Shown here: in pieces, positions 3,383 to 13,841 of the stretch
Layout of the letters: the number at the start of each line of letters is the position of its first letter
How positions within the stretch are numbered: position 1 is the first letter of the stretch
Notes under the pieces: generated by a model
What the model was told of the DNA's origin: nothing
Seen by the model: the letters and a program-made list of their open reading frames with translations, nothing else
Database searches by the model: none
Made by a program: the position numbers and the translations under genes
Origin: Thiogranum sp.
GTDB taxonomy: Bacteria > Pseudomonadota > Gammaproteobacteria > DSM-19610
Assembly (NCBI GenBank): GCA_030148775.1
Contig: JASBST010000020.1
Coordinates: forward strand, 102,674-126,673
DNA length: 24,000 nt
Direction of reading: 5' to 3'

Positions 3383-4861
3383 TCAATAAGGGCCGGCGCG
3401 TGCGTGATCGAGTCGCCGCACGAAATCGCCCATGATGATGCGGTACAACTCGTCGTCCAGATAGGCGTCTTCCACGCCGCTGTCGATCGACGGGTTGTCG
3501 TTGATCTCGATCACCACCGCCCGCTGGCCGCTGGTTTTGATGTCGACCCCGAACAGACCGTCGCCGATCAGGCGCGCGGCCCGGGTGGCGATTTTGCAGA
3601 CCTCGCGCGGTACGTGCTGGATGCCGACCGTTTCCGCGTTGCCGCTGCGGTACTTGCTGGCCGCGTGGTTGTAGATCTGCCAGTGACCGCGCGCCATGTG
3701 GTACTTGCAGGCGTAAATGGGCCGGTGGTTGAGAATGCCGATACGCCAATCGTAATCGGTCGGCATGAACTCCTGCAGCAGAACGATGGCCGAGCGCTGG
3801 AACATGTTCTCCACACCCTGGCGCAGTTCCTCGACGCTGTCCGCCTTCTCCACGCCGATAGAAAAGGATCCGTCGGGGATTTTCATGATCAGGGGGAAGC
3901 CCATCTCCGTTTCGAGCTGGGCATAGTTCACCGGCTGGTCGCGCAACAGCAACTGGGTCACCGGTTGGGGGATATTGTGGGTATCCAGCAACTCGTTGAG
4001 AAATACCTTGTTGGAACAGCGCAGAATGGCCTCGGGCGCGTCGATGACCGTCAGGCCTTCGTGTTCGGCGTGTTTGGCGAAGCGGTAGGTGTGGTGGTTG
4101 ACCGCCGTGGTTTCGCGGATGAACAAGGCGTCGTACTCGGCCAGACGGCCGAAATCATCGGGCGTGATCAGTTCGACGTCCAGCCCGAGTTTGCCGCCGG
4201 CGCGGATAAATTTGTTCAGCGCGGCGCGGTTGCTGGGCGGCAGCGCTTCGTCCGGATTGTGCAGTATCGCCATGTCATAGCGGTTGCGCCGTCGCAGGCG
4301 CGGGCGTCGCCAGACGCGTTTGCAGAATGCGTCCAGACTGTCGCCGAACAGCGTCTGCTCGGCGTTGTCGAGCTCCTGCAGGTTGCCAAAACGCACGCCC
4401 ACCACTTTCCACTCCGGCGTGCCGGAAAGCTGCACGCGCAGAATCGGCGCGCTGTAACGCTCGAACAGCGAGCGGGCGAAGGCGGCCAGTTCGGCCACGT
4501 CGCACTTGCCAAAAACGATCAGCAGTTCCAGATTGTCGACATCGCTCATGCCGAGCTTGCGTAAATAGGCCTCGATGGCGCGTTCCAGCTCGTTGTCGAA
4601 CAGGCGGTAGTGGGCGAAGTTGTGCAGATCGTTGATGGTACTGACCGCGGGGATGACCTTCTCCCCCCTGGCCTCACCGAGCAGCGAGCAATAATAGCCG
4701 GTGCCAAGGTATTCAAGACCGCTGCAAAGATTGATTATGTAGCCCGGTTTTTGCTCCGTTTGCGTCTGCTGCAGATAATCCTGCGCCGTAATGACGTTCT
4801 CGCTGGGATAATACGGCGACCAGGCGGCGGCATCATCGACGATGATGCGGAATTGTTTCAT
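3383..4861 (-). CDS. RimK-family ATP-grasp amide ligase with a ~190-aa N-terminal extra domain (RLAN-like)
   Basis: 492-aa ORF. The C-terminal ~300 aa carries ATP-grasp/RimK motifs: FPLIMKIPDGSFSIGV (ATP-binding Lys region), VLLQEFMP, and GVDIKTSGQRAVVIEINDNPS (Mg-binding E-x-N). The N-terminal ~190 aa (MKQFRIIVDDAAAWSPYYP...GYYCSLLGEARG...) has no counterpart in E. coli RimK. ATG at 4861 with GAGG about 13 nt upstream. Confidence 0.85.
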   Translation of the reverse strand: MKQFRIIVDDAAAWSPYYPSENVITAQDYLQQTQTEQKPGYIINLCSGLEYLGTGYYCSLLGEARGEKVIPAVSTINDLHNFAHYRLFDNELERAIEAYLRKLGMSDVDNLELLIVFGKCDVAELAAFARSLFERYSAPILRVQLSGTPEWKVVGVRFGNLQELDNAEQTLFGDSLDAFCKRVWRRPRLRRRNRYDMAILHNPDEALPPSNRAALNKFIRAGGKLGLDVELITPDDFGRLAEYDALFIRETTAVNHHTYRFAKHAEHEGLTVIDAPEAILRCSNKVFLNELLDTHNIPQPVTQLLLRDQPVNYAQLETEMGFPLIMKIPDGSFSIGVEKADSVEELRQGVENMFQRSAIVLLQEFMPTDYDWRIGILNHRPIYACKYHMARGHWQIYNHAASKYRSGNAETVGIQHVPREVCKIATRAARLIGDGLFGVDIKTSGQRAVVIEINDNPSIDSGVEDAYLDDELYRIIMGDFVRRLDHARAGPY

Positions 4862-4916
4862 CGATTTCGGAGCGCCTCGTCAGAGTTTGCGACGGCGGCC
4901 AATGTCGCACCAAAGA

Positions 4917-4934
4917 CAAGCGCTGGCAAGCGCT
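4917..4934. promoter_or_regulatory. Tandem 8-nt direct repeat CAAGCGCT-gg-CAAGCGCT, giving two AGCGCT palindromes 10 bp apart, in the divergent intergenic region. Candidate operator.
   Basis: Read directly: CAAGCGCT at 4917-4924 and again at 4927-4934. Each contains the self-complementary hexamer AGCGCT, and the centres are one helical turn apart. The repeat lies 56-73 nt upstream of the ligase ATG. It could also fold as an AAGCGC/GCGCTT hairpin. Function not demonstrated. Confidence 0.25.
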
Positions 4935-5027
4935 TTTAACCGACGACGCCCGCCGGTCCCGCATGCCGCCGGCCGGCGCCGGGCGAGCGACCACCCGGGG
5001 GCGCGCCGCGGAGCAGAAAAGACTTCC

Positions 5028-5050
5028 ATGCGGCCCGCTTCAGGCCGCAT
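5028..5050 (+). other. Perfect 8-bp stem / 7-nt loop hairpin in the leader of the GNAT-peptidase gene
   Basis: ATGCGGCC (5028-5035), loop cgcttca, GGCCGCAT (5043-5050). The stem contains the in-frame ATG at 5028 and abuts the in-frame ATG at 5052. The structure is certain from the sequence; the role is unknown. Confidence 0.3.
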
Positions 5051-5081
5051 TATGGGCGTCTCAGATAAAAGTTCTTTACCC

Positions 5082-6230
5082 ATGATTCGTACCGCCACCC
5101 TGGATGATCTCGACGCACTGCTGGCCCTGGAGCAGCAGGGCTTCGAGGAAGACCGTATCAGCCGGCGCCAGTTCCGTCATCTGCTCACCCGCGCCAACGC
5201 CACCGTGCTGGTCAAGCTGGACGAGGCGCAGGCGCTGGTGGGCAACACCGTGGTGTTGTTTTCACGCGCAACATCGGTGGCGCGGCTCTATTCGCTGGCG
5301 GTGGCGGCGCAGGCGCGTGGCCAGGGCGTGGCCACCGCCCTGGTGCACGCGGCCGAGCAGGCCGCCTGGGCCAGACGTCGTGCCTATATTCGCCTGGAGG
5401 TGCGCAAGGACAATGCGCGGGCGATGGCCTTGTATGAGCGCCTCGGCTATCGCCGCTTTGGCGAGTGGGTCGACTACTATGACGATCACGCCGATGCCTG
5501 GCGCTACGAGAAGTCGCTGTCTCCCGAGCTGCGGCCTTCCCTGCGCGAAGTCTCGTGGTATGAACAGAGCCTAGAGTTCACCTGCGGTCCGGCGGCGCTG
5601 ATGATGGCCATGGCCACCCTGAATCCGGCTCTGAAGCCGAGCCGCAAGCTGGAATTGCGCCTGTGGCGGGAGGCGACCACCGTTTTCATGACTGCCGGGC
5701 ACGGGGGATGCGGTCCCTATGGGCTGGCGCTGGCGGCGGCTCAGCGCGGTTTTGACGTGCGCGTGTATGTCAGCGGCAAGGGTGTGCACCTGGTGGACTC
5801 GGTGCGTGGCGAGGATAAAAAAGAAGTCATGCGTCTGGTTCAGGAAGATATGCGCGATCAGCTGCGCGCGCTGCAGGTGCCGGTGATCCATGCTGCCATG
5901 TCGCTGAAAAAAATGGAGGCCGAGTTCGCCGCCGGGGCGATTCCGCTGGTCCTGATCTCGTCGTGGCAGATCTATGGCGAGCGTTTTCCCCACTGGGTGG
6001 TGGTCAGCGGGTTCGATGCCAGCTTCGTCTATGTGAATGACCCTTATGTGGATTACGATGCCGGCGAAACGGCGCTGGATTCCATTTCCATGCCGATCGC
6101 GCGCGAGCGCTTCGCCGCGATGGCGCGCTATGGGCGCGTCAAACTTCAGGCTGTGGTGATGTTGGCCGCCGGTAGTAAGAAGGATTCCGGTGTCACCGGC
6201 GACGCCAAGCCTATGGTGAATGAGAAATAA
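5082..6230 (+). CDS. Two-domain protein: GNAT N-acetyltransferase fused to a C39/papain-like cysteine peptidase domain
   Basis: The ORF track gives 4842..6230, but its first 80 codons are Arg/Pro-rich and overlap the divergent ligase start. A typical GNAT N-terminus, MIRTATLDDLDALLALEQ, begins at ATG 5082. In-frame alternatives at 5028 and 5052 cannot be excluded, and there is no strong SD. GNAT acetyl-CoA motif A: LAVAAQARGQGVATALV. The C-terminal domain has the Gln/Cys/His/Asp set of C39-type peptidases: QSLEFTCGPAALMMAM, FPHWVVVSG, VYVNDP. Confidence 0.8.
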   Translation: MIRTATLDDLDALLALEQQGFEEDRISRRQFRHLLTRANATVLVKLDEAQALVGNTVVLFSRATSVARLYSLAVAAQARGQGVATALVHAAEQAAWARRRAYIRLEVRKDNARAMALYERLGYRRFGEWVDYYDDHADAWRYEKSLSPELRPSLREVSWYEQSLEFTCGPAALMMAMATLNPALKPSRKLELRLWREATTVFMTAGHGGCGPYGLALAAAQRGFDVRVYVSGKGVHLVDSVRGEDKKEVMRLVQEDMRDQLRALQVPVIHAAMSLKKMEAEFAAGAIPLVLISSWQIYGERFPHWVVVSGFDASFVYVNDPYVDYDAGETALDSISMPIARERFAAMARYGRVKLQAVVMLAAGSKKDSGVTGDAKPMVNEK

Positions 6231-6332: not shown

Positions 6333-6698
6333 ATGTCCAGTGTTGAGAGTTGCCGGGCCCCCGAGGACATTGTTCTTGACGAACTTGAGCGCGACGAGGA
6401 AGGCTTTCTGCTCGACGCCCACGACTGGCATCCGGGCCTGATCGAGCCGCTGGCAGCCGAGAGCGGACTGGAATTGACGCCCGAGCGGCTGGAGATCATT
6501 CGCTATATTCGCGAGTATTTCGAGACCAACATGAGTGTTCCGGAAGCCCGCGTGCTGCTCAAACATCTGCGCCAGATCGCCGGCGAGGAGAAAGCCACCC
6601 GACGCTATCTCTATCAGCTGTTCCCGCGCGGTTACGGCCAGCAGGCATGCAAGATCGCCGGCATGCGCAAGCCGCGCAAACTGATGTTGGACGTTTGA
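6333..6698 (+). CDS. DsrC/TusE-family sulfur-relay-like protein, atypical C-terminus (no penultimate Cys)
   Basis: 121 aa with AGGAG upstream. Family-typical core: EEGFLLDAHDWHPGLIEPLAAESGLELTPERLEIIRYIREYFE...VPEARVLLKHL...LYQLFPRGYGQQACKIAGMRKP. It ends in RKLMLDV instead of the canonical PKPTGCV. Confidence 0.85.
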   Translation: MSSVESCRAPEDIVLDELERDEEGFLLDAHDWHPGLIEPLAAESGLELTPERLEIIRYIREYFETNMSVPEARVLLKHLRQIAGEEKATRRYLYQLFPRGYGQQACKIAGMRKPRKLMLDV

Positions 6699-6699
6699 T

Positions 6700-6730
6700 C
6701 CGCGCCTCGGCGGCGGGCGCGGCTATTTTT
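6700..6730 (+). terminator. Candidate rho-independent terminator between the convergent genes
   Basis: CCGCGCC (6700-6706) pairs perfectly with GGCGCGG (6716-6722) around a 9-nt loop. This is followed by CTATTTTT (T-run 6726-6730). It starts 2 nt after the dsrC-like stop. The T-run overlaps the last codons of the convergent EncFtn-like gene. Confidence 0.45.
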
Positions 6731-7019
6731 CCTCGAGGTCGGCGATTGGCGCCTCGGTGAACAGATAGTCGCGCAGCTCCTTGTCGAGCCGCGCATCGCG
6801 GCGGCGCAACCATTCGAGCACCATCGCCGCGTGTTCCTTCTCCTCGTCGCGGTTGTGCGCCAGAATGGCCTTGAGTTCCGGATCCTTGCACGCATCCACG
6901 CGCTGGTTGTACCAGTCGACGGCTTCCAGCTCTTCCATTAAAGAGACGATGGCGCGGTGGAAATCGCGGGTCTCGTCACTCAGTTCCTCGATGGGTTCGT
7001 GATAGCCTTCGTTACTCAT
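6723..7019 (-). CDS. Encapsulated-ferritin-like (EncFtn family) ferritin-like protein, apparently not encapsulin-associated
   Basis: Near-diagnostic EncFtn core: HEPIEELSDETRDFHRAIVSLMEELEAVDWYNQRVDACKDPELKAILAHNRDEEKEHAAMVLEWLRR. The Glu/Glu/His ferroxidase ligands are in the EELEAV and EEKEH motifs. The ORF-track start at 7046 is a GTG. ATG 7019 (MSNEGYHEP...) has GGAAGG about 10 nt upstream and is preferred. Confidence 0.85.
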   Translation of the reverse strand: MSNEGYHEPIEELSDETRDFHRAIVSLMEELEAVDWYNQRVDACKDPELKAILAHNRDEEKEHAAMVLEWLRRRDARLDKELRDYLFTEAPIADLEEK

Positions 7020-7113
7020 TTTTGCTGTGCCTTCCCGTTTCGCCACGGCACAGGACCTGCGCCCGTAGCAAAAGTATACAGCATGCGCCGTCGCCGGCTA
7101 GAGCCACCGCGCA

Positions 7114-9768
7114 TCAGTGTTTGCGGAAGAAGATGTAACGGTAACCGCCGGCGATCAGAGCGGCGATATCCATCAGCAGGGGCGGCAACGGCGTGAGCAC
7201 CGGATAGGCCAGATAGCTGCCGCGCCACAGCGGGTGAAATTTTTCCTTGAAGCTGCGCAGACCCTTGTAGTTGTAGAAACGGTTGCCGTATTCAAAGGCA
7301 AAACGCGCCACTTTCTCCCCGGCGCGCGCGTAGCGGTTGCCGCCGACACCGCTCAGCGGCGCCAGGCCGAGATTGAAATAGCGATAACCGGCGCCGCGCG
7401 CGTGTTCGATCAGGTTCGCGAACAGAAATTCCATGGTCCCGGGCGGGGCGCTGTCGTGCTGGCGCATCAGATCGACACTGAGTTCCTGCTGCCGCGCATA
7501 GTCCGGCATCAGGCTGGCGAAGGCCACGATGCGTTGCTCCACGCTAACGGCGGCGATGTCGCCGCGGCTGAGATAAGCGCGGGAGAACGCCCCCAACGAG
7601 AAACCTTTTTCCGCGCCATGGCGGCTGCGCAGCCAGTGGTCCGAGACGGCTTTCAGCTGTTCCCAGGTGGCCTCGTCTAGCGGCTGTCGCAACCAGTGGA
7701 ACGTGACGCCGCCGCGCTTGGCGCGATTGACAGCATGACGTACCGCTTCACCGCGCTTGCCGCTTAAGCTGAAGCCGTCGAGTTCTACCAGCGCCGCTTC
7801 GCCCAGTTTGAGAAAGGCAAAGCCCGCGTCGTGATAGCGGTGCAGCTCGGATTCCTCGACTTCGTAAAAACAGGCGGTCAAGTTCAGGCGATCGGCGTAC
7901 TCGCGGAACGCGACCACCAGCGCGTCGAAAGCCTGCGGGTTGCCGCAAGGATCGCCCAGGGCCAGCAAGCGGTCGCGAACGATCCCGTATTGAATGAAAG
8001 CATCGCGCGCCTCTGACCAGAACAGGCGTTTATCACCAAGGAAAACCAAATGGGCGAAGCCGCTACCGCCGAAACGTTGCAGCAGTGCCTGGGCCTCTGC
8101 CAGCTCGTCGGCGCCGGCGGGCGAGGCCACCGTCGGGGTGCGGCGATACAGCGCCCAGGACAGCACCACCAGCACCACCAGCGCGGCCACCAGTAACGAG
8201 CGGGCAAAGCGCGGCGCTTCGTCAGCGGCGGAGAACTGCGACAGCCGCTCCCAGCCGAGCGGAATTGCCCCGTGGACCCAGTCGCCCAACCAGGCAAAGG
8301 CGACTACGGCGACCATCATCCCGACCAGCCAGCGCAGATTGCGCGGATGGAACAACATGAAGTCGGTGCGATAAAAGCGCTTGCGCTCGAGGCGCAGCAG
8401 CGCGGCGATGCCGGCCAGTAGCGCCGCCTCTTCATAGTCGATGCCTTTGAGCAGGCTGAAGGCGATGCCGGCGCCGAGTAAACTCAGGGTGAAGCGATAA
8501 GCGCTGCGGTATTGTTCGGCGATTCCGCGCGAAACGGCGATCAGCAAAACGCCCGTGGCTACCGACAACAGGTGGGAGATTTCTATAATCCCCAATGGTA
8601 CCAGCTTGTGCAACAAGGTGAGACGCGGCACCAGCGTCGGAAAGGCCGCCGAGGCCAGCAGCATGGCGCCGGCGAGAAAGGTGAGATAAGCCAGCACGCG
8701 CACACCGAGCGAAGCGAGCAGGTTGAGCGGCGGGCGTAATAGCCCGAGCCAGCGGTTACTGCGCCAGAGTTGCTCCAGCGCGAAGCGTTGCACCTGGCGC
8801 GTGGCCACCAGGCGGCCGGCGCCGAGATACAGGCCGATGCACCAGGGGACGACGTAGTAGCACAAACGGTACACCAGCAGGCCGGAAATCACGCTGGCCG
8901 GCTGTTCGCTGAACGGCGCCAGCAGAAGAAACAGTGCGGTATCGAACACGCCCAGGCCGCCGGGTATCAGGCTGAGGATTCCCAGTGTGCTGGCGAGTAC
9001 GAACGCGGCCAGGAAAACAGCGCCGTCCAGGCCGGCGCCGCTGATCTGCAAGGCCAGCCAGGCGGTGGCCGCGGCCAGCAGCCAGTCGAGGGTGGAAATC
9101 GCCGTCAACGACAGCAATCGGGCGCCGGGGATCGGGGTCAGGACACGGACAAAGCGCTGCAGTGCGCCACGCCGCAGCAACCAAAAATACAAGGGCAGAT
9201 ACAGGGCGAATGCGCCCAGCGCCAGACGCACGACCCAGTCGGCGACGGGCAAGGCCTCGGTATCGGGCACGGCGAACAAAAGCGGCCAGCTCAAGACAGA
9301 CAATCCCACGGGTAGCGAGAACAGGATCAAGGCGGTAAACGCCGTTGCGCTCCGGGCGCCGAGTTTCTCGCCGCTCAGCAGCAACAGGCGAATGGCGCTG
9401 CCGGCCAGGCCGGACAACCCGATCAGATTGTTGAAGCTGTTGGCGATCCAGGCGTTGCGCAACAGGGTTGGCGGCGGCAGCGGCAGGCGTAAGATGCGCG
9501 CCGCCAGCCAGTCGTGCAGACCCATGACGAAAATGCCGATGAGGGCGATCAGTTGCACGCCGGCCAGATGCGCCGGATCGAGCGCGCGCCAGGTGGCGCG
9601 GATGGCATGAAAGTCGAGCTGCTGCAGACCGCGCGCGGCGGCGACGCCGACCAGGGCGAGGAACACAAGCGGCACGCCGCGGCGCAGCCAAAGCAGCGCG
9701 GCCGGTGGCGCGGGCCCTTCCTCGGGTAACGATCGATCGTCCCTGACTGCGGTACGCCGTCCGGTCAT
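7114..9768 (-). CDS. mprF: Bifunctional aminoacyl-phosphatidylglycerol flippase/synthase MprF
   Basis: 884 aa. The N-terminal ~540 aa is polytopic membrane (many hydrophobic helices). The C-terminal cytoplasmic synthase domain carries family motifs: FLGDKRLFWSE, FYEV, GFAFLKLGEAALV, GKRGEAVRHAVNRAKRGGVTF, EKGFSLGAF, SVDLMR, PGTMEFLF, YRYFNLGLAPLSG, RFYNYKGLRSFKEKFHPLW. Confidence 0.9.
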   Translation of the reverse strand: MTGRRTAVRDDRSLPEEGPAPPAALLWLRRGVPLVFLALVGVAAARGLQQLDFHAIRATWRALDPAHLAGVQLIALIGIFVMGLHDWLAARILRLPLPPPTLLRNAWIANSFNNLIGLSGLAGSAIRLLLLSGEKLGARSATAFTALILFSLPVGLSVLSWPLLFAVPDTEALPVADWVVRLALGAFALYLPLYFWLLRRGALQRFVRVLTPIPGARLLSLTAISTLDWLLAAATAWLALQISGAGLDGAVFLAAFVLASTLGILSLIPGGLGVFDTALFLLLAPFSEQPASVISGLLVYRLCYYVVPWCIGLYLGAGRLVATRQVQRFALEQLWRSNRWLGLLRPPLNLLASLGVRVLAYLTFLAGAMLLASAAFPTLVPRLTLLHKLVPLGIIEISHLLSVATGVLLIAVSRGIAEQYRSAYRFTLSLLGAGIAFSLLKGIDYEEAALLAGIAALLRLERKRFYRTDFMLFHPRNLRWLVGMMVAVVAFAWLGDWVHGAIPLGWERLSQFSAADEAPRFARSLLVAALVVLVVLSWALYRRTPTVASPAGADELAEAQALLQRFGGSGFAHLVFLGDKRLFWSEARDAFIQYGIVRDRLLALGDPCGNPQAFDALVVAFREYADRLNLTACFYEVEESELHRYHDAGFAFLKLGEAALVELDGFSLSGKRGEAVRHAVNRAKRGGVTFHWLRQPLDEATWEQLKAVSDHWLRSRHGAEKGFSLGAFSRAYLSRGDIAAVSVEQRIVAFASLMPDYARQQELSVDLMRQHDSAPPGTMEFLFANLIEHARGAGYRYFNLGLAPLSGVGGNRYARAGEKVARFAFEYGNRFYNYKGLRSFKEKFHPLWRGSYLAYPVLTPLPPLLMDIAALIAGGYRYIFFRKH

Positions 9769-9949
9769 GACCCTTTACTAACGATCCGCTGTCGCGGAGA
9801 TGAGAGTACCCATAGTCTAGAGAATATCAGAACCTTTGCCCGCAACCGGCATCTAAGTTTCAGCGTCGGGTCGTTGATGCGCCGCCGGCGGTCTGTCTGT
9901 ATCTATCGGTTGCGGCCGTCGGCATCTGTTGAAATCAAAAGGATCGAGT

Positions 9950-11482
9950 ATGCGCGAATCATCGGCCGGGAGGACTCCGCAACACGCCCAGTTCGTCCTC
10001 TTCGGCGCCATGGGCGATCTGGCCTGGCGGCTGATCGGACCGGCGTTGTACAACCTGCACCTGGACGGTCACCTGCCGCAGGAATTCGCCTTGATCGGCG
10101 TCGATCGCGAAATCAGCGTCGATGCCTTACGCCAGCGCTGGCGCGACGGCGTAGACCGCTTTTCGCGTCGCGGCCGTGCCGAACAAGCGGACTGGGATTC
10201 GTTTGCCGGCCTCTTGCAGGTTCATGCGATGGATCTTACGCAGCCGGCGCAATACGAGGGTCTCAAGGTCCGTCTCGACGTCGCCGCCGAAAAAGCCGGC
10301 GCGCAGGTGTTCTATCTTGCCATTCCGCCGCGCCTGTTCGCCGCCGTGACCGACGGCCTGGCTTCGGTCGGCCTGCAGCGTCCCCGCGGGCGGGCACGGG
10401 TGGTGGTGGAGAAGCCGCTGGGCGACAGCCTGCAGGCGTTTTGCCGTATCGACCAGAGCCTGCGCAGCCATTTCGAGGAGTCCCAGATCTATCGCATGGA
10501 TCATTTCCTGGGCAAGGAGACAGTGCAGAACATTCTGGCGATGCGCTTTGCCAATCCTATATTCGAACCCATCTGGAACCGCCGCTATATCGACCATGTG
10601 GCGATTACCGTGGCCGAAAGCATCGGCGTGGGGCACCGCGCCGGCTATTACGAACACGCCGGCGCGCTGCGCGACATGGTGCAGAACCACCTGCTGCAGG
10701 TCATGTGTCTGGTGGCGATGGAGCCGCCGGTGGCTTATGATGCTGACGATATCCGCAACAAGAAGCTTGACGTCCTGCGCGCCTGTCGGCGTATTCCCGC
10801 CGACGATGTTCGCCGTTTTGCGGTGCGCGGACAGTACGCCGGCGGCTGGATTGAGGGCGAGGCGGTGCCGGGCTACTGCGACGAGCCCGATATCGCGGCG
10901 GGATCGAATACCGAGACCTATGCCGCGATCAAATTGCTGGTGGACAACTGGCGTTGGCAGGATGTGCCCTTTTATCTGCGCACCGGAAAGCGCCTGGCGG
11001 CGACCGTCTCGGAGATTTCGATCCGCTTCCGGGACATTCCGCACAATGCGTTTCCGGCCGATACGGGCCTGAACTCGCAACCGGTGCGGCTGGTGATCCA
11101 GATCCAGCCGCAGGAGGGGATCATACTGAAATTCATGGCCAAGCAACCCGGCAGTCCGCTACGTCTGCGACCGGTGGATATGCGTTTCAGCTATTGCGAC
11201 GCCTTTAAAACGGCCAGCCCGGGTGCCTACGAAACTTTGCTGCGAGACCTGCTGGCCGGCGACGCCACCCTGTTCATGCGCGCCGATCAGGTCGAGGCCG
11301 CCTGGTCGCTACTGATGCCGGTGCTGGAGGCCTGGGCGGCCAATCCGGCACTTGACTTTCCCAATTATCCGGCCGGCACCTGGGGGCCCGAGGCCGCCGA
11401 GCGCCTGGTGGCGCGCGACGGTCGCGCCTGGCTCACGCCAAGCGCGCCGCGTGCAGCGGCGAGTAGCGGGCGTTGTGACTGA
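9950..11482 (+). CDS. zwf: Glucose-6-phosphate 1-dehydrogenase
   Basis: NADP-binding N-terminus FVLFGAMGDLAWRLIGPALYNL. Active-site block RMDHFLGKETVQNILAMRFANPIFEPIWN. Also YYEHAGALRDMVQNHLLQVMCLVAMEPP. The ORF-track start at 9929 is a TTG. ATG 9950 has AAGGA about 7 nt upstream. Confidence 0.92.
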   Translation: MRESSAGRTPQHAQFVLFGAMGDLAWRLIGPALYNLHLDGHLPQEFALIGVDREISVDALRQRWRDGVDRFSRRGRAEQADWDSFAGLLQVHAMDLTQPAQYEGLKVRLDVAAEKAGAQVFYLAIPPRLFAAVTDGLASVGLQRPRGRARVVVEKPLGDSLQAFCRIDQSLRSHFEESQIYRMDHFLGKETVQNILAMRFANPIFEPIWNRRYIDHVAITVAESIGVGHRAGYYEHAGALRDMVQNHLLQVMCLVAMEPPVAYDADDIRNKKLDVLRACRRIPADDVRRFAVRGQYAGGWIEGEAVPGYCDEPDIAAGSNTETYAAIKLLVDNWRWQDVPFYLRTGKRLAATVSEISIRFRDIPHNAFPADTGLNSQPVRLVIQIQPQEGIILKFMAKQPGSPLRLRPVDMRFSYCDAFKTASPGAYETLLRDLLAGDATLFMRADQVEAAWSLLMPVLEAWAANPALDFPNYPAGTWGPEAAERLVARDGRAWLTPSAPRAAASSGRCD

Positions 11483-13841
11483 CGCCGCGGTCTTTGACGC
11501 CGAACAAGCCCCGGGGGCGCCGGGCATGCTGCCCAACTGGTGCGACGGCGCCAAGCAGATGGTCGGGACCAGCCTGGGCCCGGCGCGGGTCTGGTTCACC
11601 GTCGGTCAGGGCATCCTCAACGAAATCTATTATCCGCGCGTCGATATTCCGCAGGTGCGCGATCTCGGCATCATCGTCGCCGATGGCGACGGCTTTTGGC
11701 AGGAGGTCAAACGCCTGCCCGAGTGTCGGCTGAGCTGCGTAGCGCCCGGTATTCCCGCTGTCACCGTGGTGCATCGCCACGAGCGGTTTACCCTGACCCA
11801 GCGGTTGGTGCCAGAGCCCAACCGCGATGTGATGCTGCTGGAAATCAGTTTGCAGGGCGACGAGGCGCTGCGCCCCTATGTGTTGCTGGCGCCGCATCTG
11901 GGCGGCACGGGCCGGCAGAACATGGCCGAAGCCGGTCGCTTTCGCACCCGCCGCGTGCTCTGGGCCGAACAAGGCCCCTTCGGTCTGGCGATGGCGGCCG
12001 TCGACGCACATCAGGGCGATGCGTTGGGCGTGTGCAGCGCCGGTTATTCGGGCGAGTCCGATGGCTGGCAGGATTTCAACCGCCACGGCCGCTTGCGCCG
12101 ACGCTACCGCCGCGCCGGACCGGGCAACGTTGCCTTGACCGGTGCATTGCCGCGCCAGGCGGTGGTCGCACTGGGGTTCGGCAGCAGCCGCGAAGCCGCG
12201 GCGACCCTGGCGATTTCGGCATTGTTACATCCGTTTGAATTGATCTGGCAGCAACAGATCGCACACTGGCGCGAGTGGCACACGCGGCGTTGTGTGCCGC
12301 CGACGCCCACCCGTGGCAAGCTCCCCGTGGCGCTGGACGAGCAGGTGCGTACCAGCGCCATGGTGCTGCGTGTGCATCAGGATCAGACCTTCCGTGGAGC
12401 GTTGATCGCCAGCCTCAGCGTGCCCTGGGGCGAGCATTCGGAAGAACGCCCCGGTTACCATCTGGTCTGGCCGCGCGATCTGGTCGAGTGCGCCGGGGCG
12501 CTGCTGGCCTTGGGCGCCGACATCGAGGCGCGGGAGATCCTGCGCTACCTGATGGCGACGCAACGCGAAGACGGCAGCTGGTATCAGAACCAGTGGCTGG
12601 GCGGCAAGCCCTATTGGACCGGTGTGCAGCTCGATCAGGTCGCCTTTCCGGTGCTGCTCGCCGGTACCCTGGCCGAGCGCGATTCGCTCGACGGTATCGA
12701 GGTCGGCACCATGGTGCAACAGGCGTTGGGCTTTATCGCCACCCACGGGCCGGCCAGCCCGCAGGATCGTTGGGAGGAGAACAGCGGCGTCAGCACTTTT
12801 ACTCTGGCGGTCTGTATCGCGGCGCTGGTATCGGGAGCGCAGTTTCTGCCCAGCGCCGAAGAAGCCTTCGTGTTGGAGCTGGCCGACTACTGGAATCTGC
12901 GCCTCGACGCCTGGACGGCGGTGCGGGACACGCCGTTCGCGCGCCGCCATGGGGTCGACAGCTACTACCTGCGGATCATGCCGGGCGCGGCGCTGCTCGA
13001 CGAGTCCGTGCTCACACAAGTGCTGCCGATCAAAAACCGTCAGCTCGACCCCGGCCTGTTGCCGACCGAACAGATCGGGGTGGATTTTCTACAACTGGTG
13101 CGCTACGGACTGCGTGAGCCCGATGATCCGCTGGTACGCGACACCCTGGCGTTGGTCGACCGTCAGCTGCGCGTCGATTTGCCTCAAGGCCCCGGCTGGT
13201 ATCGTTATACCGGCGACGGCTACGGCGAACACGCCGACGGTCGCGCCTACAACGGCAGCGGACGTGGTCGTGTCTGGCCGCTGTTGACCGGTGAGCGCGG
13301 GCACTATGAGCTGGCGCGCGGCGGCGACGCCATGCTTTATCTGCGCGCCATGGCGGCGATGGCCGGAGACGGCGGCATGCTGCCCGAGCAGGTCTGGGAC
13401 AGCGAGGATATCGCCGCGCGCCGATTGTTCCGCGGCCGCGCCACCGGGTCGGCCATGCCGCTGGCCTGGGCCCACGCTGAGTATATAAAACTGGCCTGTT
13501 CCATCGCGCAGGGGTATCCGGTGGATCGGCCGCACACCCTTTGGGCGCGTTACCGTGGCCGCCGACCCGAGGCGGCGATCTGGTACTGGTCGCCACAGGC
13601 GCCATTGCGCACCATGCCGGCAAACGCCCGGCTCGGCTTCTGCCTGCCGCAAGCGGCGACGGTCGTCTGGTCCTGTGACGACGAGACGCCGGAGCAGTCC
13701 ATTGCCACCCGCGAGCTGGCCATGGGGGTGCATCTGGCACGGCTGCCGGCGCAGCCGCGCGCACGGCAACGGCTGACTTTTCGTCTCAAGGGTTACGGTG
13801 CGCCGGATACGCGCTATGCTGTACAGCTTGTTAACGAGTGA
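11475..13841 (+). CDS. Glycoside hydrolase family 15 enzyme (bacterial glucoamylase / glucodextranase / trehalase type)
   Basis: N-terminal glucodextranase-type domain (APGAPGMLPNWCDGAKQMVGTSLG...WFTVGQGILNEIYYP). (alpha/alpha)6 catalytic domain with the GH15 general-acid motif QDRWEENSG and the general-base region GMLPEQVWD. The ORF-track start at 11352 lies inside zwf. GTG 11475 keeps the conserved N-terminus and overlaps the zwf stop (GTGACTGA). ATG 11526 would truncate the conserved APGxPG block. Confidence 0.85.
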   Translation: MTDAAVFDAEQAPGAPGMLPNWCDGAKQMVGTSLGPARVWFTVGQGILNEIYYPRVDIPQVRDLGIIVADGDGFWQEVKRLPECRLSCVAPGIPAVTVVHRHERFTLTQRLVPEPNRDVMLLEISLQGDEALRPYVLLAPHLGGTGRQNMAEAGRFRTRRVLWAEQGPFGLAMAAVDAHQGDALGVCSAGYSGESDGWQDFNRHGRLRRRYRRAGPGNVALTGALPRQAVVALGFGSSREAAATLAISALLHPFELIWQQQIAHWREWHTRRCVPPTPTRGKLPVALDEQVRTSAMVLRVHQDQTFRGALIASLSVPWGEHSEERPGYHLVWPRDLVECAGALLALGADIEAREILRYLMATQREDGSWYQNQWLGGKPYWTGVQLDQVAFPVLLAGTLAERDSLDGIEVGTMVQQALGFIATHGPASPQDRWEENSGVSTFTLAVCIAALVSGAQFLPSAEEAFVLELADYWNLRLDAWTAVRDTPFARRHGVDSYYLRIMPGAALLDESVLTQVLPIKNRQLDPGLLPTEQIGVDFLQLVRYGLREPDDPLVRDTLALVDRQLRVDLPQGPGWYRYTGDGYGEHADGRAYNGSGRGRVWPLLTGERGHYELARGGDAMLYLRAMAAMAGDGGMLPEQVWDSEDIAARRLFRGRATGSAMPLAWAHAEYIKLACSIAQGYPVDRPHTLWARYRGRRPEAAIWYWSPQAPLRTMPANARLGFCLPQAATVVWSCDDETPEQSIATRELAMGVHLARLPAQPRARQRLTFRLKGYGAPDTRYAVQLVNE

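Follow-up and report, generated by a model that had tools for sequence, protein, structure and literature searches.

Two genes that face away from each other in a 24,000-nucleotide stretch of the genome of Thiogranum sp. (contig JASBST010000020.1, positions 102,674 to 126,673; hereafter, the window) raise the question of whether an amino-acid ligase, an acetyltransferase, and a peptidase work together there and, if so, on what substrate. One gene encodes a RimK-type ATP-grasp ligase that carries an additional N-terminal RLAN domain, and the other encodes a GNAT acetyltransferase fused to a C39-like cysteine peptidase domain of the DUF3335 family (hereafter, the GNAT-peptidase). We found that this pairing is kept across hundreds of bacterial species. 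Judged from their families and conserved residues, the two genes would form one amide-bond module, predicted to be cytoplasmic, in which a ligase, an N-alpha-acetyltransferase-like GNAT, and a cysteine peptidase all appear to have intact active sites.

Conservation of the gene pair

The linkage of the two genes was analyzed from both sides. For the GNAT-peptidase, one genome per GTDB species was scanned, and the best 80 of at least 593 loci were taken; the reciprocal, ligase-side census covered 80 metagenome loci out of at least 581. The ligase adjoined the GNAT-peptidase in 74 of the 80 genome loci, and three of the six loci without an adjacent ligase ended at a contig boundary. Reciprocally, a GNAT gene adjoined the ligase in 69 of the 80 metagenome loci, and six of the 11 loci without it had less than 1 kb of upstream sequence. 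The genome loci came mainly from Chromatiales-like and Ectothiorhodospira-like Gammaproteobacteria, with others from Rhodocyclaceae, Competibacteraceae, Gemmatimonadota, Leptospiraceae, and further taxa. A preliminary description of this DNA had proposed that the two genes belong together and had made their linkage in other genomes the test of that proposal; the two censuses confirmed it.

The pair might still have been accidental neighbors serving unrelated processes, as the two genes lie on opposite strands in the window and the remaining neighbors there are unrelated genes, encoding methyl-accepting chemotaxis (MCP), DsrC-like, EncFtn-like, and MprF-like proteins. However, the adjacency recurred in two independently sampled sets of loci, under several phyla-level labels and in three gene orders. 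The census therefore effectively refutes this explanation, which we consider almost certainly wrong. Chance open reading frames (ORFs) are also excluded for both genes, because each protein has thousands of homologues (for the ligase, 7954 at E ≤ 0.001 from 8000 candidates).

The layout of the pair varied among the loci. In 72 of the best 80 of at least 593 genome loci, the ligase followed the GNAT-peptidase on the same strand after a short gap, and only the two closest relatives of the window, loci L002 and L004 (the latter from a Thiogranum metagenome-assembled genome), were divergent like the window. Among the 69 metagenome pairs, 60 were divergent, eight were of the downstream same-strand type, and one was of the upstream same-strand type. 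The divergent arrangement emphasized in the preliminary description thus holds for the window, but other layouts occur as well, and the GNAT-peptidase’s closest relatives mostly form co-directional operons.

The peptidase was a less constant part of the module. Of the 69 metagenome loci in which a GNAT adjoined the ligase, 25 had a detectable C39-like domain. Three further GNAT loci were cut by the contig end and carried DUF2817, and no C39-like domain was detectable in the other 41 (~60%), nearly all of which encoded stand-alone GNATs of 150–190 aa, as in Pseudidiomarina. An M14-like DUF2817 gene was found in 14 of the 80 ligase-side loci, e.g., in Methylomarinum, where it was placed between the ligase and the GNAT or GNAT-peptidase gene (L082 at 7482–8555, L086, L087, L094, L112, L115, L116, L139, L140, L153, L162, and others); the window is without it. 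DUF2817 matched AstE_AspA_cat above the Pfam threshold and MpaA weakly, and the AstE/AspA family hydrolyzes small N-acyl amino acids. No further protein family was present in more than 15 of the 80 genome loci, the commonest being a divergent M20 gene (15/80). Because the peptidase is absent in many loci and no other family is conserved, the conserved core of the module is the RLAN-ligase plus the RimI-like GNAT, and the hydrolases are optional accessories. The three-activity unit described earlier is fully encoded in the window, but it does not extend to the 41 ligase-side loci without a detectable peptidase domain.

The lineage of the window appears to hold a hybrid pair. Its ligase is 53–60% identical to proteins of Idiomarina, Methylomarinum, and Methylophaga, and 42–51% identical to the ligases that stand beside the nearest relatives of its GNAT-peptidase. 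In neighbor-joining (distance) trees of loci sampled by similarity, the ligases formed two clades, of which clade A contained solely co-directional GNAT-peptidase operons and clade B contained all divergent and ligase-first layouts. The ligases of the window, L002, and L004 fell into clade B, and their GNAT domains fell deep within clade-A-type fusions, suggesting that the ligase partner was replaced and the pairing was retained. Such a replacement would support both functional coupling of the two proteins and interchangeability of the partners. Adjacency thus persists over this apparent partner swap as well as over the three gene orders.

Domains and active sites of the two proteins

The ligase, named ‘RimK family protein’ by NCBI, matched RLAN (PF14401) at residues 26–173 with an E value of 1.4e-42 (145.3 bits, cut-off 25) and the RimK-type ATP-grasp domain (PF08443) at residues 283–460. 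The motifs MKIPDGSF, LLQEFMP, and EINDNPS were located at positions 326, 361, and 452, respectively, which together with the Pfam match upheld the earlier claim of a complete RimK-like catalytic region. The global alignment with Escherichia coli RimK began at approximately residue 195, so the ~190 extra N-terminal residues reported in the preliminary description are real and correspond to RLAN, a predicted alpha/beta domain that is absent from canonical RimK.

The ATP-grasp residues K327, Q363-E364, D440, E452, and N454 were invariant in the ligase homologue alignment. They correspond to K141, Q177-E178, D248, E260, and N262 of E. coli RimK, in which order E452 and N454 make up the E-x-N motif; in addition, R249 and R373 are equivalent to R64 and R189. 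The position of S7-R8 in RimK is taken by H201-N202-P203 with an invariant Glu close by, and the counterpart of S68 is A253. In the structure of RimK_PA, a bound Glu5 chain touches S7, R8, S14, R64, S68, R189, and N262 (PMC10092738). Among these poly-Glu contacts, R64, R189, and N262, which lie at the reacting end, are retained in the ligase, but S7-R8 and S68 are changed. Because the S7-R8 contacts to the upstream glutamates seem to be lost, the residue pattern suggests that the acceptor may not be a long poly-anionic chain, and it would speak against a long poly-Glu or a bS6-type acceptor.

The nearest NCBIfam models for the C-terminal 270 residues of the ligase were rimK_fam, LysX, and MptN, all of which remained under their curated cut-offs (86.9 bits against 143.4 for rimK_fam, TIGR00768), and the score against the bS6 ligase model NF007764 was also below the cut-off (40.8 against 331 bits). 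A sequence search of the PDB returned the RimK proteins of Pseudomonas and E. coli at the top, followed by LysX/ArgX. The AlphaFold2 (AF2) model of the ligase (mean predicted local distance difference test score, pLDDT, 80) had the RimK structures 7qyr, 5zk6, and 4iwx as its best folds, with template-modeling (TM) scores of 0.79–0.83. RLAN forms 627 clusters at 50% identity among 1.84 billion representatives. A profile search of the PDB found no solved-structure relative of RLAN, and the Foldseek PDB lists, which were filled by GNAT and ATP-grasp chains, held no fold match for RLAN or the C39-like domain. The idea of RLAN as a degenerate ATP-grasp copy was not supported, as the hhalign comparison with the protein’s own ATP-grasp half gave a probability of 1.4%, which was not significant.

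The mechanically delimited ORF of the GNAT-peptidase spans 4842–6230 (462 aa), and in the NCBI copy, which bears the name ‘GNAT family N-acetyltransferase/peptidase C39 family protein’, the coding sequence begins at 5052, giving 392 aa. Homologues align from the equivalent of the ATG at 5082, and the relative L004 has an in-frame stop after the upstream ATG; therefore, the start was placed at 5082, and the residue numbers of the GNAT-peptidase refer to this 382-aa form. With this start, the divergent gap measures 220 bp, in agreement with the ~220 bp given earlier.

The GNAT domain (PF00583, E 1.2e-14) contained the acetyl-CoA motif RGQGVA at residue 79, intact as the preliminary description had it. 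Its closest solved relatives by profile were NAA10, bacterial RimI, and archaeal Ard1, with which its C-terminal YY..D.DA motif also aligned, and its best folds were RimI 5isv (TM 0.83) and then Ard1 4pv6. The residues E106, N111, Y132, and Y133 were kept in 117–119 of 119 loci. The score of 66.9 bits against RimI TIGR01575 is below the equivalog cut-off of 86.4, and from these matches the domain appears to be RimI-like rather than RimI proper. The score against Ngg TIGR03103 (39.5 bits, cut-off 569) covered the acetyl-CoA motif only, the ATP-grasp domain being on a separate chain here, and a weak NCBIfam match to HaaN, an acetyltransferase of peptides made by ribosomes and modified after translation (RiPPs), had an E value of 0.0063. 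The AF2 model of the whole GNAT-peptidase had a pLDDT of 85 and a predicted TM score (pTM) of 0.80.

The C-terminal domain matched DUF3335 (PF11814, ‘Peptidase_C39 like’, Peptidase_CA clan) over model positions 2–205 of 206, with an E value of 2.9e-83 and 278.9 bits. The Gln/Cys/His/Asp set that had been read from the sequence corresponds to Q162, C168, H304, and D320, which were kept in 106–107 of ~108 homologous loci. Scanned alone, the domain also passed Peptidase_C39_2 (PF13529) with 29.4 bits against 24. Among 10 DUF3335 homologues, eight had weak matches to PF03412 and six had weak matches to Guanylate_cyc_2; the window protein itself had no PF03412 match, and the best of the 10 homologues reached only a weak E value of 0.0012. 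The profile search found no close solved relative of this domain. It gave a weak alignment with the double-glycine protease of PCAT (6mpz, E 0.09), in which Q-x5-C and H...NDP are in register, and other weak alignments with the ‘putative C39-like peptidase’ 3erv and with BtrH N-domains. One DUF3335 homologue showed a faint, non-significant match to ACTMAP-like_C (E 0.11). A 2023 classification of papain-like proteins placed DUF3335 beside PF09778 and described its fusion to GNAT as frequent (PMC10318531). The profile-HMM (hidden Markov model) check of the two proteins found the four domain calls of the preliminary description (an extra N-terminal domain, a RimK-type ATP-grasp, a GNAT, and a C39-type peptidase) all correct.

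Table 1. Positions of the locus features, counted from the first nucleotide of the window
Feature	Position	Strand	Basis
RLAN + RimK-type ATP-grasp ligase gene, 492 aa	3383–4861	−	ORF, Pfam, homologues, AF2
RLAN region, residues 1–190; Pfam span residues 26–173 = nt 4343–4786	4292–4861	−	PF14401
Pre-ATP-grasp + ATP-grasp catalytic region, RimK-type, residues 195–492	3386–4279	−	E. coli RimK alignment
GNAT + DUF3335 (C39-like) fusion gene, 382 aa	5082–6230	+	Pfam, homologue alignment, AF2; annotated alternative start 5052
RimI/NAA10-type N-alpha-acetyltransferase (GNAT) domain, predicted	5082–5540	+	PDB sequence and fold matches
DUF3335 papain-clan C39-like cysteine peptidase domain, predicted	5553–6164	+	PF11814, conserved residues
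Catalytic candidates Q162, C168, H304, D320	5565–5567, 5583–5585, 5991–5993, 6039–6041	+	Conservation
Divergent intergenic region, 220 bp	4862–5081		Aligned with L002 and L004
Inverted repeat TGCGAC-N10-GTCGCA, candidate operator	4888–4909		One mismatch in L002 and L004
CATTAT box, candidate −10 box	5047–5052		Conserved with L002 and L004

Possible product and rival readings

Enzymes of the RimK family join an amino acid, in most cases alpha-L-Glu, to a terminal carboxylate that they have activated; their acceptors include proteins (bS6 and LysW), cofactors (F420 and tetrahydromethanopterin, H4MPT), and small acids (N-acetyl-Asp). We tentatively favor, as a substantial possibility that stays short of an even chance, that the module makes a di- or oligopeptide that is free, N-acetylated, and contains glutamate, not a leader-processed RiPP. 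This product would resemble N-acetylaspartylglutamate (NAAG), N-acetylglutaminylglutamine amide (NAGGN), or an oligo-alpha-glutamate. The ligase would convert a terminal alpha-carboxylate into an acyl-phosphate and then attach L-glutamate, or an amino acid like it, through an alpha linkage, and the GNAT would acetylate that molecule at its free alpha-amino end. If acetylation came first, the N-acetyl-amino acid would be a primer that mimics a peptide C-terminus; if it came afterward, it would cap the product against aminopeptidases. The fused C39-like peptidase would then trim or degrade the product and could thereby control its length or turnover, and the M14-like DUF2817 protein may share this hydrolase role in other lineages.

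The proposal of a free peptide is supported by several observations. The catalytic residues of ligase, GNAT, and peptidase are conserved, and the two genes stay linked in both censuses. No protein or peptide substrate is encoded in cis. The residues at the carboxylate end of the ligase site (R249, R373, and N454) are kept and the S7-R8 contacts seem to be lost. The accessory DUF2817 matches the AstE/AspA domain, and RimK itself has a dedicated peptidase partner, RimB. Other points weigh against the proposal. The chemistry assigned here to the ligase, GNAT, and peptidase would follow from family resemblance, and which amino acid the ligase uses is likewise presumed from its family. The nearest relatives of the GNAT are protein N-terminal acetyltransferases and those of the ligase modify the protein bS6, so a protein substrate encoded elsewhere would be equally natural. 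Furthermore, the peptidase is absent from many relatives, meaning that trimming is not essential to the core function, and no exporter, amidotransferase, or regulator such as those of osmolyte operons is conserved near the module.

Tagging of a protein is the main alternative; we hold it to be possible but, on balance, unlikely. Here, the ligase, docked through RLAN, would add a Glu tail to the C-terminus of bS6 or another protein, the GNAT would acetylate a protein N-terminus, and the peptidase would erase the tail. RimI acetylates bS18, which is the partner of bS6. In both sequence and fold, the ligase matches RimK structures best, including the RimK-RpsF complex 5zk6, and the GNAT matches RimI, NAA10, and Ard1 best and carries the YY...DA motif of the N-terminal acetyltransferase (NAT) type. 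A ligase-plus-eraser design is experimentally established for RimK/RimB (PMC7343187, PMC11957791), and because rimK is likewise unlinked to rpsF, a missing neighboring target is no counter-argument. Nevertheless, the ligase lies far under the bS6-ligase cut-off as well as under that of rimK_fam, the S7-R8 poly-Glu contacts seem to be lost, and the GNAT is under the RimI cut-off; moreover, the eraser domain is missing in many relatives. A related scheme, N-terminal maturation, seems improbable to us. It follows the logic of ACTMAP, the actin N-terminal maturation protease that acts upstream of the acetyltransferase NAA80: the papain-like domain would expose a new N-terminus, the fused GNAT would acetylate it, and the ligase would act on the same substrate. 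That the peptidase and N-alpha-acetyltransferase active sites share one chain, modeled with the pTM given above, would fit this order of events, and the ACTMAP-like_C match of one homologue offers a lead only, being non-significant. However, ~60% of the ligase-side GNAT loci have a stand-alone GNAT and no peptidase, and no precursor gene is conserved nearby.

The preliminary description had stated that C39 domains cleave peptide leaders, and a RiPP- or bacteriocin-like pathway would build on this function: the C39 domain would remove a leader, after which the precursor would be acetylated and ligated or cyclized by the ATP-grasp enzyme. GNATs and ATP-grasp enzymes are known in RiPP clusters, the Q/C/H/D set aligns with that of the PCAT double-glycine protease, and the weak HaaN match points in the same direction. 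Nonetheless, no conserved small ORF or precursor peptide was found within 1.5 kb of the module in ~160 loci, the clusters obtained being alternative-frame artefacts or lineage-specific, and no carrier protein, ABC transporter, leader peptide, or other cluster gene was conserved near the module in the same loci. The ATP-grasp domain is also RimK/LysX-type and not graspetide-type, and PF03412 was matched weakly. Since a leader peptide, a carrier protein, and an ABC transporter are all missing nearby, the module is not a classical C39 system, the leader-cleaving function does not carry over to this locus, and we regard the RiPP pathway as very improbable.

The favored proposal of a free N-acetylated peptide and that of a protein mark can both be described as a ‘cap, tail and erase’ system, an idea that we put forward with some hesitation and consider rather doubtful in its full form. 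The system would make either a new N-acetylated oligo-alpha-glutamyl or N-acetyl-dipeptide metabolite or an erasable dual mark of N-acetyl and C-terminal Glu on a protein; RLAN would be its specificity or regulatory domain, and the ligase partners would be interchangeable between clades, in line with the apparent hybrid pair of the window.

Surroundings of the module and known counterparts

The divergent intergenic region was compared with those of L002 and L004, and the only elements conserved in all three were the CATTAT box and the inverted repeat. The pattern of the inverted repeat occurred once in the window, and 19 of 100 shuffles gave two or more occurrences, so the count is not significant alone; we infer that the repeat may act as an operator. 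Neither a match to the sigma-70 consensus nor an Rfam family was found in the 220-bp region. Two further elements, which had been taken as signs of dedicated regulation, did not withstand the comparison. The leader hairpin (5029–5048), with z = −1.33, is energetically ordinary and has no conserved counterpart in L002, and neither of the two closest relatives shares the tandem AGCGCT palindrome.

The M20 neighbor noted above, which lies directly upstream of the GNAT-peptidase, is a genuine argE, encoding acetylornithine deacetylase, and scored 559 bits where the cut-off is 460. It was seen in L008, L011, L012, L021, L027, L029, L037, L044, L054, L068, L071, and other loci, and argA was near in five of the 80. 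As this housekeeping-type ArgE was present in only 15/80 loci, argE and argA were set aside as functional partners and treated as probable synteny; their proximity may reflect inherited synteny or hint at N-acetyl-glutamate chemistry. The anti-phage defense models of PADLOC assigned no family to either protein. In 11 metagenome loci of the subclade with stand-alone GNATs, a predicted membrane protein of ~87 aa was encoded convergently downstream of the ligase on the opposite strand (e.g., L117, L122, L127, L129, L131, and L132); it is not in the window.

Next to the module, an EncFtn-like (encapsulated ferritin) gene is located at 6723–7046 on the minus strand and lacks an adjacent encapsulin shell gene. 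On either side stand the genes for the DsrC-like protein (6333–6698) and the MprF-like lysyl-phosphatidylglycerol synthase (7114–9768), and an EncFtn-like gene also adjoins the module in the Thiogranum locus L004. Further along the window, the listed ORFs for glucose-6-phosphate dehydrogenase (9929–11482) and a GH15 glucoamylase/glucodextranase (11352–13841) overlap by ~130 nt, and the GH15 gene probably starts further downstream.

A neighborhood of RLAN-RimK and GNAT-papain-like peptidase genes was reportedly defined by computational means by Iyer, Abhiman, Burroughs, and Aravind in 2009 (Mol Biosyst 5:1636). That work is cited for the fusion of DUF3335 to GNAT in a later classification (PMC10318531). 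The window pair has the same architectures and the same pairing of PF14401 with PF11814, and it is a member of this neighborhood. The statement that the combination had been treated only computationally agrees with our survey: in the literature searched, we found no experimental work on RLAN, DUF3335, DUF2817, or the combination of a RimK-like ligase, an acetyltransferase, and a peptidase. Relative to the computational description, our results suggest as new the dispensability of the peptidase, the DUF2817 variants, and the partner swap in the lineage of the window.

Several known systems combine similar activities. The NAGGN system comprises Ngg (a fusion of GNAT and ATP-grasp domains), AsnO, and an M42 peptidase, and makes an N-acetylated dipeptide; it is an osmolyte system, reportedly described by Sagot et al. 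in 2010. The window pair is similar in that an acetyltransferase, an ATP-grasp ligase, and a peptidase are encoded together, but it differs in families, fusions, and peptidase clan and has no amidotransferase. In mammalian NAAG metabolism, NAT8L (a GNAT) makes the N-acetyl amino acid, RIMKLA or RIMKLB adds Glu, and an aspartoacylase of the AstE_AspA family acts in degradation. The DUF2817 variants of the module resemble this pathway through their AstE_AspA_cat match, which is an analogy only and applies to lineages other than that of the window. In GspSA, the glutathionylspermidine synthetase/amidase, the ATP-grasp ligase is fused to a cysteine amidase of the papain-like CHAP type, which undoes the amide bond made by the ligase; here, the peptidase is fused to the GNAT instead, and the families and substrate differ. 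With the C39 domains of PCAT and other ABC exporters (6mpz), the window domain shares the papain-clan fold family and the Q-x5-C and H...(N)DP positions. In contrast to them, it comes with neither a transporter nor a double-glycine leader substrate, its match does not reach the level of PF03412, and it is ~70 residues longer, with its own invariant WREATT and GHGGCGP motifs.

RimK and its partners offer an experimentally studied parallel in design. Pseudomonas RimB trims poly-Glu and stimulates the synthesis of free poly-alpha-Glu by RimK, and RimB-RimK fusions exist (PMC7343187, PMC11957791). As in RimABK, the Pseudomonas system of bS6 poly-alpha-glutamylation (PMC4741518, PMC7343187, PMC11957791, PMC10092738), a RimK-family ATP-grasp ligase with conserved core residues is paired with a peptidase in the window. 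Unlike RimABK, whose peptidase is a retropepsin, the window pair uses a papain-clan C39-like peptidase, adds a RimI-like GNAT and RLAN, and has no RimA. Its ligase is only ~22% identical to RimK, scores under all RimK model cut-offs, and seems to have lost the S7-R8 contacts. From these comparisons, the pair appears to lie outside canonical RimK, RimI, Ngg, and true C39.

The RimK family serves in ribosome re-tuning (bS6), carriage of biosynthetic intermediates (LysW), finishing of cofactors, and synthesis of neuropeptide-like NAAG. The pair described here represents a distinct RimK branch that stays linked to a RimI-like acetyltransferase across at least ~600 species. The census implies that its minimal unit is the ligase plus the GNAT, with the peptidase and DUF2817 as accessory hydrolases and no substrate gene nearby. 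Knowing what it acts on would extend bacterial physiology, be it by a new small peptide metabolite or by a new reversible modification of a protein.

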